Positions 2 to 11,057 of a DNA stretch of 11,440 nt are shown here, one piece after another. The notes beneath the pieces were generated by a model, which searched no databases, was not told the DNA's origin, and saw only the letters and a list, made by a program, of their open reading frames with translations. Both the position numbers and the translations under genes were made by a program. The stretch lies in IMG/VR virus record IMGVR_UViG_2585427781_000005. One strand, given 5' to 3'. The stretch is from a virus (lineage: Duplodnaviria; Heunggongvirae; Uroviricota; Caudoviricetes). Position 1 is the stretch's first letter, and each line of letters begins with the position of its first letter.

Positions 2-961
<960 letters not shown>

Positions 962-1090
962 AAACTGGGGATAACGCCTTAAATGGCGAAGAAACGGTCT
1001 AAATAGGCTGATTCGATGTGTTTGCGGGAAAAAAATCGGCCCAGATCCGCGAAATTTTAATCAGCGAGTCAGCTTGGGAAGAAATGACCT

Positions 1091-1106
1091 GCTTATTCGC
1101 ACCTTC
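1091..1106. repeat. IS5 terminal inverted repeat (16 bp)
   Basis: cttattcgcaccttcc is read directly from the sequence, 130 bp downstream of the transposase stop. Confidence 0.8.
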
Positions 1107-1395
1107 CTTAAGTGAAGATGCTTGACGAATCGCCAAATAAAACATCTTCATCAGCATAAAAATCCATATATGATTGAAAATTTAGTCATTAATACCATTC
1201 ATATCTGAATACTGACCTAATATGCTTACTAACCGTGAGAAATCTTTTTTTTCGACTTAATCACTCGAAATAAACTTTCACTCAATTGAAAACAATTAGC
1301 TACAATTATCATTGCAATATCAAATCAAACATAACAACTTGCATAAATTCTCATGGGATACAGCATCAGTTGTGCCAAACACATAAGGAATTGAA

Positions 1396-1593
1396 ATGGA
1401 CGGAGAAAGCTTTAACTTTGATGACAATGATATTGAATTTATTGCTTCAATGTATGCATCATGTAAATTATCAGGAAGCATCGCCCCCATAATGCATATA
1501 ATGGTTAGCATTCCAAGAAATAAGAAAAAACAATTCTACGAACGAGTTGAGCATTATTGTAGTTTATATTCCAATAAAAACCCACCTTCTTAA
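1396..1593 (+). CDS. hypothetical small protein, 65 aa, acidic N-terminus (MDGESFNFDDNDIEF...), no recognisable family
   Basis: ATG at 1396 is preceded by AAGGA (1385-1389) with a 6-nt spacer, a near-ideal Shine-Dalgarno arrangement. The frame is open for 65 codons to TAA at 1591-1593, unusual in stop-rich AT-rich DNA. A TACAAT -10-like hexamer sits at 1301-1306. No homology is recognised. Confidence 0.3.
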   Translation: MDGESFNFDDNDIEFIASMYASCKLSGSIAPIMHIMVSIPRNKKKQFYERVEHYCSLYSNKNPPS

Positions 1594-1725
1594 ATTCGCT
1601 GCATTCTAGTGGATTCCATTAAGAAAACAATGACATACACTCAAACACATCTTTTTTATCAACAGTGAATTTCAGTTCGGCCAGTTTTTACCAGCTATTA
1701 TAAAAATAGCATCCATATAAAGTTT

Positions 1726-1829
1726 TTACCCCACAGGTACAGCTGGCCATTCGATAACCGCACTAAGGAAGTGCCAACACGATATCAGCAAGACCCGATA
1801 TTTCTTCCATGCCGCCAGCAACGATGTTA
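1726..1829 (-). pseudogene. remnant of the 3' end of a second, diverged tfa (tail fiber assembly) gene
   Basis: Minus-strand translation gives ...[32 protein letters not shown], against the intact Tfa C-terminus ...[32 protein letters not shown]. The DNA at 1726-1826 aligns colinearly with 2412-2512, with matching ends and a divergent centre. Upstream of ~1830 the frame is AT-rich with no Tfa similarity. Confidence 0.55.
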
Positions 1830-1981
1830 AGGTTAAATTAATTATAAAAAATATATTATAATTCCATCTTCGCATTAAATTTTAACCTTTAATCTCCACA
1901 CGGAACAAGTTGCATAGGTGACTATATTAGGAAAACTTATAACCACCAAAACATTTGCTTTGCAAACAAAAACAGTGACCA

Positions 1982-2010
1982 TTGACTCTAAGAAAATTCC
2001 GATCTATTGT
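1982..2010 (+). promoter_or_regulatory. candidate sigma70 promoter (TTGACT, 17-bp spacer, TATTGT)
   Basis: -35-like TTGACT at 1982-1987 and -10-like TATTGT at 2005-2010 with a 17-bp spacer, placed about 35 nt upstream of the ATG at 2045. This is a sequence match only, and AT-rich DNA gives many such matches. Confidence 0.2.
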
Positions 2011-2044
2011 TAGGATCATCAAAGTTACTTAACAGTATTCCGAA

Positions 2045-2146
2045 ATGAAAATACAAAGCAAGCTAATTGTCTTATTAAACATTATCATTGCATTTATATT
2101 ATTTGAGCTTTTAGCTCAAAAATTTGGTTTGAGTACATTATTTTAA
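2045..2146 (+). CDS. hypothetical 33-aa hydrophobic peptide MKIQSKLIVLLNIIIAFILFELLAQKFGLSTLF (one predicted transmembrane helix)
   Basis: ATG at 2045 to TAA at 2144-2146. The N-terminus has two lysines followed by an ~18-residue hydrophobic stretch. It sits between a promoter-like element and a clear intrinsic terminator. There is no obvious Shine-Dalgarno, and AT-rich codon bias gives I/L/F/K-rich ORFs by chance. Confidence 0.2.
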   Translation: MKIQSKLIVLLNIIIAFILFELLAQKFGLSTLF

Positions 2147-2294
2147 AGCAAGATAAACAATATCGGGCACTCTAGTTTTTATAATTAACAATTAAACGTC
2201 CATAAAATGTTATTTACTTTTGTTCGCTATTGTCATATCTTAATATAGTGGCTTACGCCACTCTACTTTCATCACATTTTGTACGTTTATGTAC

Positions 2295-2328
2295 TCGCCA
2301 TGAAGCTCTTTCATGGCGATTTTTTATT
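2295..2328 (+). terminator. rho-independent terminator (10-bp stem, 5-nt loop, T-tract), plus-strand specific
   Basis: tcgccatgaa (2295-2304) pairs with ttcatggcga (2310-2319) around loop gctct, followed by ttttttatt (2320-2328). The minus-strand reading lacks a U-tract after the hairpin, so it ends a plus-strand transcript converging on tfa. Confidence 0.6.
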
Positions 2329-2411
2329 CTTAATCCAAGAACATACTCCCTACCTATAGCAAAATCACTTTTTGAACAAAAGAATAACGTATTTAGGTAA
2401 TCATTACGAAT

Positions 2412-2993
2412 TTACCCTATAGGTGCTACTGGCCATTCAATATCCGGTGCAGTTGTTGTATTAACACGGTTCAGCAACACCCGATACTTTTTCCAGGCTT
2501 CCAGCAACGAGTTTTCTTCCTCCGTTGCGATTTCCAGATCTACAGCATCCTGAAGTGGCGCAATATGCTCATTCGCTGCCTGCATCAGGCTGTTTTTTGT
2601 TTCTTCCGCCTCCCGGATCCGGAATAGTTTTTCTGCTTCTGCATCTTTCACCCAGGCTGTGCCGTTCCACTTCTGAAACTCCCCTTCCGGGGATAACCAG
2701 GTGACATTTTCCGGTAATGAGCCGAGTTCAGAAATAAATAACGCGTCGCCGGAAGCCACGTCATAAACCGTTTTACCCCGATGATCTTCAACGAGATGCC
2801 ACGATAACTCATCACTGTTGAAAACAGCCACGAAGCCAGCTGGAATATCTGGCGGTGCAATGTCGGTACTGTTTGCTGGCAGACCTGTATGAGGCGGAAT
2901 ATATGCATCACCTTCACCAATAAATTCATTAGTTCCGGACAGCAGATTATAAATTTTTATGGTCCGTGCTTGTTCACTCATTCTGAATGCCAT
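2412..2993 (-). CDS. tfa: tail fiber assembly protein Tfa (lambda Tfa-like chaperone), 193 aa
   Basis: The translation [51 protein letters not shown]... matches lambda Tfa from memory. Its ATG overlaps the stf stop as TAATG (2991-2995). Confidence 0.95.
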
Positions 2994-5900
2994 TATGCAA
3001 GCCTCACAATATAGTTAAATGCGATGTTTTTGACGGTGTTTTCCGCGTTACCAGCAGCGTTAACGGTGATGGTGTGTCCATGTGAACCAATCGCAACCGA
3101 GTGCGTATGCGCACCAATACCTACAGTATGTGCGTGTGCACCTGCGCTTGCAGCAGTACCCGATACAGAGTGCGTATGAGCGCCTGCAGAAGAAGTGTTA
3201 ACACTGTATTTAGAATAATCAGGTGATCCACTTCCCGGAGCACCACTGGAACCACCTGAAACAAATGTCATCGAATGGGTATGTGCACCGGCTGAAGCAG
3301 CCGTACCGCTAACACTATGGGTATGCGCACCAGTGTTATTCGTGGATTTAGTGCCGTAATCAAACGACGATGTGGTTTTCGTCCCCAAATCAGTACTGGA
3401 TGCGCTGGCGCTGTGGGTATGCGATTTTATGCCGTCCTGTTCCTGAGACAATACGGCACGACCACTGGCGGGCTTGCCCTTAATCGTCCAGCCACGCATA
3501 TCAGGGATCACGCCTGACGGATAAGCGGCTGCAAGTTTCGGGTAGGCAGATTTGTCAAAAGTCTGCCCCTGCATCAGGGCATAACCAGACGGAACGGTAT
3601 CTGATGGCCACGGGATTGGTGCGCCGACTGGGTAGCTTTCTGGTGGAAGATTTTTCGAGGTATAAACTTCTGCCCAGTCTTCCTCAAAACCATAACCGTC
3701 TCTTGAAGAACGGTAGAACAGACCACCATTTCTGTAATGCGCCTTCATCTGCAAGGTCCGGCAACTTCCGACTCCGGTATAGAAGTTAACCAGAATATAG
3801 CTGTCGCCAGAGCGGGTGACCTTATAAGCGCCTGATTCGGCATTCCAGGGAACGCCCCCATCCGCATCGGCATATGTATCCGTTGCCCTTCTGGCAAAAG
3901 CAGCCACATGCGCGGCGGTTAAAGTGATATCAGTAGAACCATCAAATGGAACACCGGATATTTTTCTTGCAGTCTGAAGTTTTGTAGCAGTTGCAGCATT
4001 ACCAGTGGTGTTCTGATTACCCGTAGTGTTTACACCTGGAAGGTTAATATTTGCAGAACCGTCGAAAACAACTCCACCGATAGATCTTGCCGTCTGCAAT
4101 TTCGTGGCTGTACTTGCATTACCATTCAATGAACCAGTTAATCCACCTGTAACAGACAACGGACCTGAAACTGTTCCTCCGGTTGTTGGCAGTGCTCCAA
4201 TATCTGATGGTGTAGGTTTCTGATGTGAGCTATACATCGTATAAACAACACCATAGGTAACGCTGGAAGGCTTACTCGCTGAATATGTTGGCGAGGTATA
4301 AACAGAAACTGACGCATTTGCAGTACAATCCCAATGGATATTTACACTCGTCGCATAATTGCCAATCTCAACGTAAATATCATATGTATCGCCGGATGTG
4401 TTGATCCAGGCGAAATTCGTTAATCCGACGGCTGTACGCTTCCACAAAGCCCCGGTAATTCCTTTGGGGTTTCCATTGCCTGCTCGTAGAACCAGTTCTG
4501 AAATGCCTGCCTGATGTGGGGAACCGACGTTGTAACCAGCGCCACCAATCAATGCGATGTAAACGATGGAACTCGCTTGTGGCATGGTAACCGTAGCCAG
4601 TTTGAACCACCCAGCCCCGCCAGAGAAAGACATCGTTACTGAATTTAAAGTACCAATATCTTTCGGCGTTAATGTTATATCCGCAGTCAGTGCTTTTCCG
4701 TTAACTTTTCGGTTAGATGGCACCCTGCTATTCGCATTGTCATTGGCTGCTTTAACTGCTTTTGGCGTTGCGGCCAGCGATTCACTGGTGCTATCAACAG
4801 CACTGCTAAGTTTCACAACACCTTTAGTTGTAAGGCTTGCGTCTTCCATCGCAACTGCACCGGCCATCTCTTCAGCACGATCAGCAGCAGCTTCCGCACG
4901 GGTCGCAGCGGATTCAGCAGTAGTTTTGCTCTGAGATGCTGCCGTCGCACTGCCTGCCGCCTCTGTTGCCTTCGTGGATGCCGTCGTGGCGCTGCTCTTC
5001 GCTGCTGACGCCTGTCTGGTCGCCTCATCTTTTGAAGCAGACGCAGATGATGCCGATGACGACGCCGAACTGGCTGACGATGCGGCAGCCGTTTTTGAGG
5101 ATTCTGCGCTGGTTTCCGACGCTTTCGCGTTCGTTTCGGATGTCTTCGCTGCGGAAGCAGACCTCGCTGCTGCGCTGGCCTGTTCAGTGGCTTCGCCAGC
5201 CTTCGTTGTGGCTGTTGAAGCAGACGATGCGGCGCTTTCTGCCGATTTTCCGGCGGCGGTGGCACTGGCTGAGGCCTGCCCGGCACTTGTTGACGCTGCA
5301 CTGGCAGACGACGCAGCCGCTGTTTTTGAGCCTGCCGCAGCCGAGGCGCTCTGTCCCGCTGCCGTTTCAGAAGACCTGGCGTTCGTCTCTGACGTTTTTG
5401 CCGCCTTCGCGGAATTTCCTGCCGCTGTTGCCGAGGAAGCTGCGCTACTGGCGCTCGAGGATGCGTTCGTTTCTGATGATTTTGCCGCCTCTTTTGAAGC
5501 CGCCGCATCCCGGGCTGAGGTGGCAGCTTCTGACGCTTTCGTAGTTGCGGTGGATGCAGAAGTGGCTGCTGATTGTTGTGACGCTGCAGCATTCGTTTCT
5601 GACGTTTTCGCGGCACTGGCACTGGTAGCTGCCGCGCTTTTTGAGGACTCTGCAGCGGCAGCACTTTTTGATGCTTCAGTAGCCTTTGTTGATGCCGTTC
5701 CTGCGCTGGAAGTCGCTGACTGAGCCGACGACGCGGCCTGTCCGGCTGACGTGCTGGCTGCGCGTGCTGAGCCTGCAGCATCAGTCGCATGGGTTGCCGC
5801 CTCACGGGCTGATGTGCTGGCATCACTGGCTGACTTCTTCGCGGCTGCCGTGTTCTGTGCCACCACGGACGCGTTACGCGCCACCTCTTCCACCATCAGC

Positions 5901-6220
5901 TCAAAACGGCGCAGTGCCTCCGGACGGGCATCATCCTCCGTCATGGCACCGAGAAAATCATTCAGCGTACCGGGTCGGGAATCTTCATACACTGTGATGG
6001 TCCCGGCATGTGACGGCGGGAATCCTTCCACCAACAGACTGACGCTGTACTGACCGTACTCAACGTCCATACTGTAACGCCCGGCTTCATCCGGATTTTC
6101 AGATGCCAGCGTGTTCACCACCACCGTGGTACTGTTACGTTTTGCTTTCAGCTGGATTGTGCAGTTCTGTACCGGTTTTCCTGTGCCGTCTTTCAGTACA
6201 CCTGAAATTTTTACTGCCAT
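2993..6220 (-). CDS. stf: side tail fiber protein Stf, intact, 1075 aa from the ATG at 6220
   Basis: N-terminus [26 protein letters not shown]... and C-terminus ...[31 protein letters not shown] match lambda Stf from memory. The track start at 6226 is a GTG two codons upstream; ATG at 6218-6220 gives the canonical MAVKISG N-terminus and follows GGGG at a suitable distance. Confidence 0.95.
3914..4120 (-). repeat. two copies of a ~29-aa phage tail-fiber repeat inside stf
   Basis: The DNA at 3965-4003 and 4085-4123 is visibly repeated and encodes N-A-[SA][11 protein letters not shown][GS]-G-V-x-F-D-G-S twice. Confidence 0.7.
4847..5854 (-). repeat. low-complexity Ala/Ser/Thr-rich shaft region of Stf with a recurring AAKTSETNA motif
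   Basis: About 335 residues are dominated by A, S and [10 protein letters not shown] occurs three times, 70 and 84 residues apart. This GC-rich, stop-poor DNA accounts for the long overlapping ORFs in other frames. Confidence 0.75.
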
Positions 6221-6231
6221 ATTCACCCCAC

Positions 6232-6284: not shown

Positions 6285-6884
6285 TCAGAATTTATAACCA
6301 ACACCCACGATGAACCCGTCAGTGCGCCAGTCACCACTGCCGGAGCCTTCATAAGCGACATCAATGGCCACGGATTCGGTCGGGTTAAACTGCACGCCAG
6401 CTCCCCACGCCAGAGACGTGTTGCTGTGGCGACCGTCATCACTTCCGGTCAGCACATCGTGCTTTTTCCCCTTGTTGTCAGTTACGTGGAGATAATCCCC
6501 GGAGAAAGTCGACACACGGCTGTAAGCCACACCCGCCATCGCATACGCGCTGAACCATTCATTCACGCGCACAGACGGCCCCGCCATTACGCTGAACCAG
6601 CGGTTACGAACGGAATCTTCATGCCAGCGGGTATCGCTGTAACGGGTAATCTGGCGATTCTTGTCTCCTGCATAGCTGAACGACGTCACCATCCCCAGTG
6701 TGTCCGTAAACTCATAACGGTATTTCACGTTAATCCCGTTCAGATCATCACTGCCGGGAACGTTCGTCCGGGCATGAAGATACCCCGCGCTCAGCGTGGA
6801 CTGATGTTCAGACGCCCATGCAGGCGCACCGGATACGGCCAGACAAATGGCTGCGGACAAAATGGCGGCATAAAGTTTACGCAT
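6285..6884 (-). CDS. lom: outer membrane protein Lom (Ail/Lom/PagC family beta-barrel), 199 aa
   Basis: The translation [38 protein letters not shown]...[10 protein letters not shown] matches lambda Lom from memory, with a signal-peptide-like N-terminus, a C-terminal aromatic residue, and a GAGG Shine-Dalgarno. Confidence 0.95.
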
Positions 6885-6950: not shown

Positions 6951-10352
<3,402 letters not shown>

Positions 10353-10372
10353 TCACGCTCCATAAACGACAA

Positions 10373-10390
10373 AACCGCCCGGAGGCGGTT
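10373..10390 (-). other. GC-rich hairpin in the I-J intergenic region
   Basis: aaccgcc (10373-10379) and ggcggtt (10384-10390) form a 7-bp stem with a 4-nt loop. On the minus strand it is followed by ttgtcgttta, which is U-rich but interrupted. Function is unclear. Confidence 0.3.
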
Positions 10391-10409
10391 TCACATAAAA
10401 CATTTTGCA

Positions 10410-11057
10410 TCAGCGACCAATCACCACAACCTGACCACCATCCCCTTCGTCTGCCGTGCTGATCTCCTGAGAAACCACCCGCGACCCCACGCGCATTTCA
10501 CCGTACAGAACAGGCAAAACATTGCCCTGGGCAACCATGTTATCCAGTGAGGAGAAATAGGTGTTCTGTTTGCCGTTATCTGTACTGGCTGCCGTGGGCG
10601 TCCTGGCTTTCGGTGCCAGCATCTGCGCCACTCCGCCCAGGATCATACTGGCCCCTGCCGCATACATGCCCGATACAGCCGCGGCACCCAGCCAGCCCAC
10701 AGGGTTCCACCATGCCACCGCAATCAGCGCCGCCCCAAGCACCACCTGAAACACACCGCCACTTTTAGCTCCCGCCAGACGCGGCACGATGTGGATCACG
10801 GCACCATTTGCCAGCGGCTCATTAAGACGGGCAGATAATTCATTTTCGCCTGCATCACGCCCGGCAATGCGCACCTGATACCAGCCCTTATTCAGTTTCT
10901 GACGAAACGCCGGGAGCTGAGTGGCCAGCGCCCGGATGGCTTCGGCCCCCGTTTTCACACGAAGGTCGATGCGGCGGCCAAATCGTTGCAAATCCCCGTA
11001 AAGGCAGATGCGTGCCATGCCCGGTGACGCCAGAGGGAGTGTGTGCGTCGCTGCCAT
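10410..11057 (-). CDS. I: tail assembly protein I, 215 aa
   Basis: The N-terminus MAATHTLPLASPGMARICLYGDLQRFGRRIDLRVKTGAEAIRALATQLPAFRQKL and C-terminus ...NVLPVLYGEMRVGSRVVSQEISTADEGDGGQVVVIGR match lambda I from memory. The central hydrophobic segment is shorter than I remember for lambda. Confidence 0.93.
   Translation of the reverse strand: MAATHTLPLASPGMARICLYGDLQRFGRRIDLRVKTGAEAIRALATQLPAFRQKLNKGWYQVRIAGRDAGENELSARLNEPLANGAVIHIVPRLAGAKSGGVFQVVLGAALIAVAWWNPVGWLGAAAVSGMYAAGASMILGGVAQMLAPKARTPTAASTDNGKQNTYFSSLDNMVAQGNVLPVLYGEMRVGSRVVSQEISTADEGDGGQVVVIGR

Follow-up and report, generated by a model that had tools for sequence, protein, structure and literature searches.

A small unit beside tfa in a lambdoid prophage of Escherichia coli: a probable moron with a distant YncL-family peptide gene and a conserved RNA tail

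Introduction

YncL is a verified small inner-membrane protein of Escherichia coli, induced by heat shock and in minimal medium, whose production, like that of YohP, causes a sublethal depolarisation of the membrane, accompanied by the phage-shock response, reduced protein synthesis, nucleoid condensation, and hypersensitivity to magainin-2 (PMC12542507). YncL and YohP have also been shown to push cells into a quiescent, stress-protected state. YncL is an in vivo substrate of the intramembrane protease RseP (PMC10470546) and, in Salmonella, yncL is carried on a short sigma-S-dependent transcript that was first catalogued as the small RNA (sRNA) STnc1110 and is described as a 'coding sRNA' (PMC5437024). 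The yncL mRNA of E. coli has also been reported as a target of RprA and of KilS, a prophage sRNA derived from a 3' untranslated region (3'UTR). Here we analyse a plus-strand unit at positions 1982-2328 of the window, by which we mean the whole stretch of 11,440 nucleotides (nt) of the Caudoviricetes record IMGVR_UViG_2585427781_000005 from IMG/VR, where a promoter-like site, a 33-codon open reading frame (ORF), a small hairpin, and an intrinsic terminator follow each other on the strand opposite to the tail fibre assembly gene tfa.

Apart from YncL, three kinds of described systems come close to this unit: the morons of lambdoid phages, such as lom and bor of lambda and other cargo placed after the tail-fibre genes; the Hfq-dependent sRNAs of prophages, including PasA-D, Esr41, and AgvB/AsxR; and the membrane toxins of type I toxin-antitoxin systems, including Hok, Ldr, TisB, Ibs, ShoB, ZorO, and DinQ.

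The unit and its reading as a moron

We read positions 1982-2328 as a self-contained phage moron made up of a predicted promoter, a gene for a YncL-family peptide, a terminator, and a conserved RNA tail, and give this reading a probability of roughly 0.75. It is based on the promoter-like site and terminator that the unit has of its own, on its deviant GC content, on its patchy spread, and on an edge that is always placed at tfa while three different sequences flank it on the left. The layout had been recognised in the original prediction, made from the letters of the window, which described a TTGACT-17-TATTGT element, an ORF, a hairpin, and a terminator in the arrangement of a moron; all four elements are found where they had been placed, and the small gene, convergent with tfa, lies in DNA of foreign composition that occurs in three left contexts. 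The copies of the unit fall into only three lineages, with roughly 95-100%, 90-93%, and 80% identity to the window, of which the last two will be referred to as the 93% and the 80% lineage. The elements of the unit are the following.

1982-2010, plus strand: sigma-70-type promoter-like site, with -35 TTGACT (1982-1987), a 17-nt spacer, and -10 TATTGT (2005-2010); 9/12 matches.
2017-2044, plus strand: putative AU-rich leader of 28 nt, without a Shine-Dalgarno sequence.
2045-2146, plus strand: ORF of 33 codons, MKIQSKLIVLLNIIIAFILFELLAQKFGLSTLF, from ATG (2045) to TAA (2144-2146).
2147-2246, plus strand: variable 3'UTR spacer, with 66% identity to the 80% lineage and three indels.
2247-2262, plus strand: hairpin 1, with a 6-bp stem and a UUAC loop.
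2263-2294, plus strand: linker CUACUUUCAUCA[C/U]AUUUUGUACGUUUAUGUAC, mostly single-stranded, with a weak 4-bp hairpin (2281-2294) at its end.
2295-2328, plus strand: intrinsic terminator, consisting of a stem-loop of 10-11 bp (2295-2319) followed by UUUUUUAUU (T6-A-TT, 2320-2328).

With the lambdoid morons, the unit shares a small gene equipped with its own promoter-like site and terminator, a deviant composition, a location at the module boundary after the tail-fibre genes, a patchy occurrence in related phages, and a product that probably serves the lysogen. It differs from them in that this product is far smaller than the classic moron proteins. The matches to the promoter consensus are kept in the three lineages, promoter activity itself being predicted, and the insertion between modules is seen in a GC content of 27-32% against about 50% around it, in the three left flanks, and in the presence of the unit in 15% of the genomes.

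A 33-codon gene under protein-level selection

The original prediction had allowed that the ORF could be a chance product of AT-rich sequence, and had held that a lack of conservation in homologous segments would count against it. The ORF is instead intact in 77 of the 78 copies examined, which cover the three lineages and have DNA identities as low as 80%; it is intact in each of the 34 distinct DNA versions and in 23 of the 24 metagenome copies. In the comparison with the 80% lineage, 13 codons differ, eight of them by synonymous changes and five by conservative replacements (V9I, I15F, F17L, E21K, and S30Y), and in that with the 93% lineage there are four synonymous changes and one replacement (A24D). 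The ratio of non-synonymous to synonymous substitution rates (dN/dS, Nei-Gojobori) is 0.05-0.09, with a dS of about 1.0 for the deepest pair, and when the same 18 substitutions were scattered at random 20,000 times, in no case were five or fewer residues changed and stops avoided. Since neither this ratio nor this outcome is that of a chance product, the worry about a chance ORF can be put aside, and the conclusion that the ORF is a real gene under purifying selection at the protein level is well supported by computation. In this stretch, neither of the other two frames is free of stops.

Other ORFs of the region were considered as genes and discarded. Seven further small ORFs in 1841-2411 are frameshifted, stopped, or purely non-synonymous in their changes across the lineages; among them, the one annotated in phage PhiR70_1, which corresponds to window positions 1918-2013, is frameshifted in other lineages, and a 24-codon ORF on the minus strand of the terminator region changes only non-synonymously.

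Gene callers have hardly recorded the peptide: in a set of about 15 billion predicted proteins, the peptide of the window was called on a single contig, as was its A24D variant, both unnamed, and the variant of the 80% lineage never. Proteins of fewer than 50 residues are routinely missed, and among the matches listed for the 831 complete E. coli genomes with this gene, it is unannotated.

Kinship to YncL

The peptide has 33 residues, with lysines at positions 2 and 6, a hydrophobic stretch from 7 to 25, and a further lysine at 26 that opens a K-F-G motif. As read from its sequence, it has the length of about 30 residues, the single helix, and the flanking basic residues of the YncL family. 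Its sole match in NCBIfam is NF000537, 'stress response membrane protein YncL', with E=1.3e-5 and 25 bits over profile positions 1-28 of 30. NF000537 is an equivalog model with a curated cut-off of 35 bits, and the three natural variants of the peptide score 25.0, 23.5, and 22.5 bits, compared with 68.6 for YncL of K-12 (b4598). As 25 bits stays below the cut-off, the peptide is not an orthologue or equivalog of YncL, but a distant paralogue.

The pairwise comparison points in the same direction. K-12 YncL, MNVSSRTVVLINFFAAVGLFTLISMRFGWFI, has 31 residues, and BLASTP aligns it with the peptide from Met1 without gaps, with 11 of 28 positions identical (about 39%) and 18 of 28 similar. The residues in common are M1, S5, [KR]6, V9, L10, N12, A16, L19, F20, L22, and [KR]26-F27-G28. 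This score was reached by none of 5000 shuffled sequences (z = 8-10), also when the hydrophobic core and the termini were shuffled separately, and none of seven segment-preserving shuffles matched the YncL model (E<=10); as the shuffled controls never match, the similarity is not one of composition. Thus, the original prediction's alternative of a small membrane-protein gene is the one that has held, in the form of a distant homologue of YncL.

In addition to the length, the single hydrophobic helix, the ungapped alignment from Met1, and the significant profile match, both genes would share a short stand-alone transcript unit, predicted here and, in the case of Salmonella, first taken for an sRNA. 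There are also differences. The low profile score and the identity of about 39% speak against a recent capture of the chromosomal gene, and any likeness to yncL at the DNA level is not evident by eye; the K-12 synteny patD-yncL-ortT is absent, the present gene being phage-borne in a prophage after tfa; no Shine-Dalgarno sequence precedes it, in contrast to the good one of K-12 yncL; and the 3'UTR differs, ending here in a canonical U-tailed terminator. That the peptide is a distant paralogue of the YncL family, and no captured copy of the host gene, is well supported by computation.

Neither Pfam nor PADLOC gave a match for any of the natural peptides; in PHROGs, the window's peptide had none, and the variant of the 80% lineage had one insignificant match to a family of unknown function (E=0.59). 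Our literature search found no report of the YncL family from phages. A phage-borne paralogue of YncL, if true, would mean that temperate phages took up such peptides as cargo for lysogenic conversion, with possible effects on stress tolerance, on sensitivity to antibiotics or antimicrobial peptides, and on superinfection in a considerable fraction of commensal, avian, porcine, and clinical E. coli.

Predicted promoter and leader

The promoter-like site is kept, with the same spacing, in the 93% lineage and in the 80% lineage (TTGACT-17-TATCGT), and its -35 hexamer TTGACT is invariant in the alignment of the copies. In the homologous stretch of both diverged lineages, TTGACT-17-TAT[T/C]GT is the sole promoter-like site on the plus strand. 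A transcript from it would start near 2017. An in-frame TAA at 2030-2032 leaves the ATG at 2045 as the only possible start of the ORF, ruling out starts further upstream.

Two GATC (Dam) sites lie in this region: one at 2001-2004 directly adjoins the -10 hexamer and is shared by the three lineages, and the other, at the predicted transcription start (2014-2017), is present only in the window's lineage. A methylation-sensitive activity of the predicted promoter is conceivable.

The leader and the peptide also bear on a reading as a type I toxin-antitoxin locus, whose small membrane toxins the peptide resembles according to the original prediction; here, an antisense or divergent sRNA, so far not recognised, would restrain the toxin. 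We regard such a locus as improbable here. The peptide is short and hydrophobic and has lysines in its N-terminal part; the production of YncL lowers viability along with depolarising the membrane (PMC12542507); and a missing Shine-Dalgarno sequence, together with long-range pairing between the 5' and 3' parts of the mRNA, is common in type I toxin mRNAs. In the minimum free energy fold of the present mRNA, CGAAAUG (2041-2047) forms a 7-bp pairing with CAUUUUG (2275-2281), and a promoter-like site on the minus strand (2236->2207) could yield an RNA antisense to the 3' end of the ORF. However, the pairing is absent from the centroid structure, the minus-strand site, the only one of its kind, falls in the stretch of lowest conservation (66%) and has been kept by neither diverged lineage, and the unit has no terminator on the minus strand. 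Between the linker and the mRNA, complementarity shows no significant excess over that of shuffled sequences, either for the translation start region (P=0.36) or for the whole mRNA (P=0.09). The search against type I toxin families that had been called for gave no match between the natural peptides and any family of the Hok, Ldr, TisB, Ibs, ShoB, Zor, or DinQ type, and YncL itself is not classed as a toxin of this kind. What the unit has in common with these systems is a short, hydrophobic, single-helix peptide related to one that depolarises the membrane; it has no sequence relationship with the toxins, and no antitoxin RNA is detectable from the sequence.

The conserved 3' tail

Going along the unit, the identity to the 80% lineage is 80% in the ORF, 66% in the spacer at 2147-2246, 94% (77 of 82 positions) in 2247-2328, and 67% in 2329-2411. 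The 82 nt from hairpin 1 to the end of the terminator are therefore its most conserved stretch, between lineages whose ORF shows a dS of about 1. The original prediction had called the terminator the firmest element; this understated the case, as the conservation extends over the whole of the 82 nt that end in it. In the scan of the window, the terminator ranks second overall and first on the plus strand, where it is the only one kept in both diverged lineages. In the spacer, the indels of the 80% lineage (-5, +1, and +4) cancel each other out, so that the ATG and hairpin 1 lie exactly 202 nt apart in every lineage.

The folding of the 91 nt from 2240 to 2330 is far more stable than that of shuffled sequences (z = -6.8). 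Among 13 distinct variants of the tail, the nine inner pairs of the terminator stem are invariant, the closing pair 2295-2319 is unpaired in two, and 98.5% of the cells are paired. The three changes that fall in stems are one-sided (C2252>U and A2260>G in hairpin 1, and C2294>U), and they give G.U pairs only in an RNA of the plus strand. As the 13 variants hold no compensatory double changes, the RNA structure is based on conservation and thermodynamics instead of covariation. The linker has an unpaired probability of 0.72 over 2263-2280, and over all copies it varies at three of its 32 positions (2275, 2291, and 2294), and one copy has a single inserted base. Termination by itself does not call for an invariant unpaired linker, which makes a sequence-specific RNA function likely; the linker would be a candidate seed or protein-binding sequence. 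The tail was never found apart from the unit, at 933 places in 827 genomes with at least 90% identity throughout.

These features raise the question of whether the RNA could be the more important product. In such a dual-function or mainly RNA unit, an Hfq-type sRNA of about 80 nt (2247-2328) would come first and the peptide second; the sRNA would be cut from the 3'UTR or made together with the mRNA, and its linker, CUACUUUCAUCA...AUUUUG, would pair with mRNAs of the host or of phages. We consider this possible, although clearly less probable than the moron reading. In its favour are the 94% identity between flanks of 66-67%; the near-invariance of the unpaired linker, beyond what the terminator needs; the one-sided changes that preserve pairing on the plus strand only; and the order of elements, typical of enterobacterial sRNAs, in which a 5' hairpin is followed by an AU-rich single strand and a GC-rich, U-tailed terminator. 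Prophage sRNAs are common in E. coli, with PasA-D and Esr41 as examples, the tail has an end-to-end, sub-threshold likeness to Esr41 and MicC, and Salmonella yncL is itself found on a 'coding sRNA'. Against it stand the missing covariation; the U-run, which is interrupted in the two diverged lineages (CUUUCUUAUU), even though the tail has the U-tailed intrinsic terminator and the conserved unpaired seed of the class; the lack of convincing conserved promoter hexamers directly upstream of hairpin 1, as judged by eye from the alignment; and the lack of membership in any Rfam family. The selection on the ORF at the protein level excludes a reading as RNA alone.

Regarding Rfam, a scan of the whole window returned nothing in 1841-2411 at E<=1. 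A focused scan (E<=10) brought up MicC (RF00121, 23.4 bits against a threshold of 90), Esr41 (RF02676, 15.6 against 102), and Aar, all below threshold, and they were rejected as assignments. Compared with the Hfq-dependent sRNAs of prophages, the tail is alike in being an element of about 80 nt from a lambdoid prophage with the same succession of hairpin, AU-rich single strand, and U-tailed terminator, restricted to E. coli and present in few sequence variants; it is unlike them in being the tail of a predicted mRNA and a member of none of their families.

The guess that comes most naturally for the function of the tail is an Hfq-type sRNA derived from the 3'UTR. A somewhat more tentative proposal combines both products: a YncL-like peptide would shift the energetics of the membrane, and the 82-nt tail, released as an Hfq-type sRNA, would reprogramme host genes, for example those of the envelope or of receptors. 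If true, such a dual function would amount to a compact module for lysogenic conversion in about 15% of E. coli. In any case, the near-invariant tail is a concrete candidate for a new prophage sRNA, with mEp332, PhiR70_1, and ev099 as carrier phages.

The conserved block also has to be weighed against a far simpler explanation, in which 1982-2328 would be filler DNA of the phage b region, the terminator its sole function, and the conservation a product of recent recombination. The terminator would then shield the late tail genes from convergent transcription, or end transcripts of the b region or derived from pL. It is indeed strong, lies 84 nt from the stop codon of tfa, and faces this gene; phage genomes are mosaic, and the identity shifts abruptly along the region; and only three lineages are known. 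Nonetheless, a dN/dS of 0.05-0.09 cannot arise in filler DNA, and the homology to YncL is specific. The block of high identity (about 2245-2337) coincides with the edges of the RNA structure, which fits no random recombination tract, and its 3' element shows 4-5 differences in every pairwise comparison of the lineages, which excludes a fresh transfer. We therefore hold this explanation to be very improbable, below even the toxin-antitoxin locus.

One further candidate, PasB, was examined as a possible identity of the tail and rejected by locus and by sequence. In enteropathogenic E. coli (EPEC) E2348/69, PasB is located at NC_011601.1 1466261-1466343, between gpI and gpJ and in antisense orientation, and its published probe is not found in window positions 1700-2700. 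A 2026 preprint by Zhu/Storz describes PasB as flanked by IS009 and IsrG matches, and the present window has flanks resembling these. Here, the tail gene upstream of gpJ (10410-11057, probably gpI) is separated from it by a spacer of 60 nt (10350-10409), compared with the 240 nt that hold PasB in EPEC E2348/69, indicating a prophage without PasB. The Rfam matches to IS009 fall in the tfa coding sequence (2452-2650, minus strand, 212 bits) and in a remnant of a tfa 3' end (1765-1840, minus strand, 33 bits), so that IS009, at least here, is a piece of the tail fibre assembly gene and no separate RNA gene. The match to isrG (5547-5635, plus strand), inside the side tail fibre gene, is non-significant (16.9 bits against a threshold of 100) and probably of the same kind as the one that the preprint on the Pas sRNAs reports near PasB.

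Points against the moron reading and proposed mechanism

Several observations weigh against the reading of the unit as a moron with a YncL-family gene. Promoter-like sites with 9/12 matches occur seven times in the window, compared with 11.3 expected from shuffled sequences, which is not above chance; the site at 1982-2010 is lifted above this background by its recovery in the 93% and 80% lineages. The absence of a Shine-Dalgarno sequence before the ATG at 2045, already remarked on in the original prediction, is confirmed by an anti-Shine-Dalgarno duplex of +0.1 kcal/mol, compared with -7.2 for K-12 yncL. The peptide fails the equivalog test of NF000537, and with 33 residues the homology depends on a short alignment. 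A phmmer search of 1.84 billion representative proteins returned only the peptide itself and a frameshifted copy, and a literature search by sequence, with the peptide, the terminator, and the linker, gave no match. One metagenome copy (L125, 261-263) has ATG changed to ATA. To these must be added the interrupted U-run and the lack of compensatory changes mentioned above, the small number of independent substitutions that three lineages provide, and the absence of K-12 and O157:H7 strains among the matches listed (about 150 of about 830 records).

In the mechanism that we propose for the moron, the sigma-70-type promoter would, judging from sequence and conservation, probably start a transcript of about 310 nt near 2017, which would run convergently to tfa and stop at the intrinsic terminator ending at 2328. 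The 33-residue peptide would be translated from this transcript without a Shine-Dalgarno sequence and, by analogy to YncL, would most likely insert into the inner membrane of the lysogen and alter its energetics or its stress state. Candidate benefits to the phage would be the stress tolerance of the lysogen or the exclusion of other phages. The last 82 nt probably act as an RNA in their own right, as their conservation suggests, either in the control of stability or as a base-pairing sRNA derived from the 3'UTR.

In the circular phage genome, the strand of the unit is the direction of b-region transcription from the int side, as known from lambda. Early transcripts could thus extend through the unit as well during lytic growth, while its own predicted promoter would serve in the lysogen.

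Prophage setting, mobile module, and spread

The window covers the tail-fibre end of a lambdoid prophage, in which the small unit lies within an AT-rich stretch on the strand opposite to tfa. The GC content of positions 1100-2400 is that of 27-32% given above, and the values of about 50% are found on both sides. The features of the setting are the following.

6951-10349, minus strand: gpJ.
6285-6884, minus strand: lom.
2993-6226, minus strand: side tail fibre gene (stf).
2412-2993, minus strand: tfa, tail fibre assembly gene, convergent with the small unit.
1862-1981, no strand assigned: conserved block upstream of the promoter, part of the mobile module.
1726-1840, minus strand: remnant of a second tfa 3' end, the left flank in 21 of the 51 loci.

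In strain WP8-S17-ESBL-05, whose genome is otherwise identical, the end of the prophage adjoins a truncated ydfJ, followed by ydfI, ydfZ, rspR, and ydfG; this integration site at ydfJ is the Qin attachment site.

The unit is always found directly after the stop codon of tfa, which forms the right edge of a mobile module at about 1862-2411, with the left boundary near 1862-1866. The 51 loci examined show three left flanks: the context of an AraC-family regulator, as in phages (25 loci), the tfa 3' remnant (21), and sitD (4). In the phage context, seen in L002 and L005 among those 25, the gene for the AraC-family regulator (830-1582, minus strand) and fragments of an IS2-type transposase lie on its left side, at a distance of about 0.9 kb from the module. 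The tfa 3' remnant of the window reads ...IEWPAVPVG, so that the module stands between direct repeats of the tfa 3' end, and a locus of the 80% lineage (L003) has tfa remnants on either side of the module. These repeats suggest that the module moves by recombination between tfa ends.

The part of the module upstream of the promoter is itself conserved, with 85-87% identity over the wider stretch 1841-1981 in the 80% and phage lineages, and it holds the invariant CTTTAATCTC...GGAACAAGTTGCAT. It may also hold a divergent promoter on the minus strand (TTGGTG-17-TATAGT, 1949->1921), back-to-back with that of the unit, which passes the promoter scan only in L004.

Regarding its spread, the 582-bp stretch 1830-2411 is present in 831 of 5426 complete E. 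coli genomes (about 15%), at 941 places, all of them chromosomal; among the matches listed, no feature is annotated beneath it. Three temperate phages (PhiR70_1, mEp332, and ev099), about 50 IMG/VR contigs, and 24 metagenome contigs also carry the unit. The species-representative genomes of GTDB hold no copy, as searched by protein pattern or by the 21-nt core, and IMG/VR, the metagenomes, and a sensitive blastn of the E. coli genomes gave nothing beyond the same three lineages. One IMG/VR contig (L056, 12466-12586) matches the window only from 2291 rightwards, having kept the terminator and the DNA towards tfa, and not the ORF.

Other neighbours

At the left end of the window, an ORF for an IS5-family transposase occupies 62-961 on the plus strand (NF033581, E=1.4e-108). 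Positions 1-1103 have no counterpart in an otherwise 99.9% identical locus (L001), where the truncated ydfJ stands, and this looks like the insertion of an insertion sequence at the junction between prophage and chromosome in the source genome. Lastly, the same AT-rich stretch as the small unit contains an ORF of 65 codons (1396-1593, plus strand), which corresponds to the RefSeq hypothetical protein WP_001421370.1, without matches in Pfam, NCBIfam, PHROGs, or PADLOC, and which may be another small cargo gene, on the strand of the unit.

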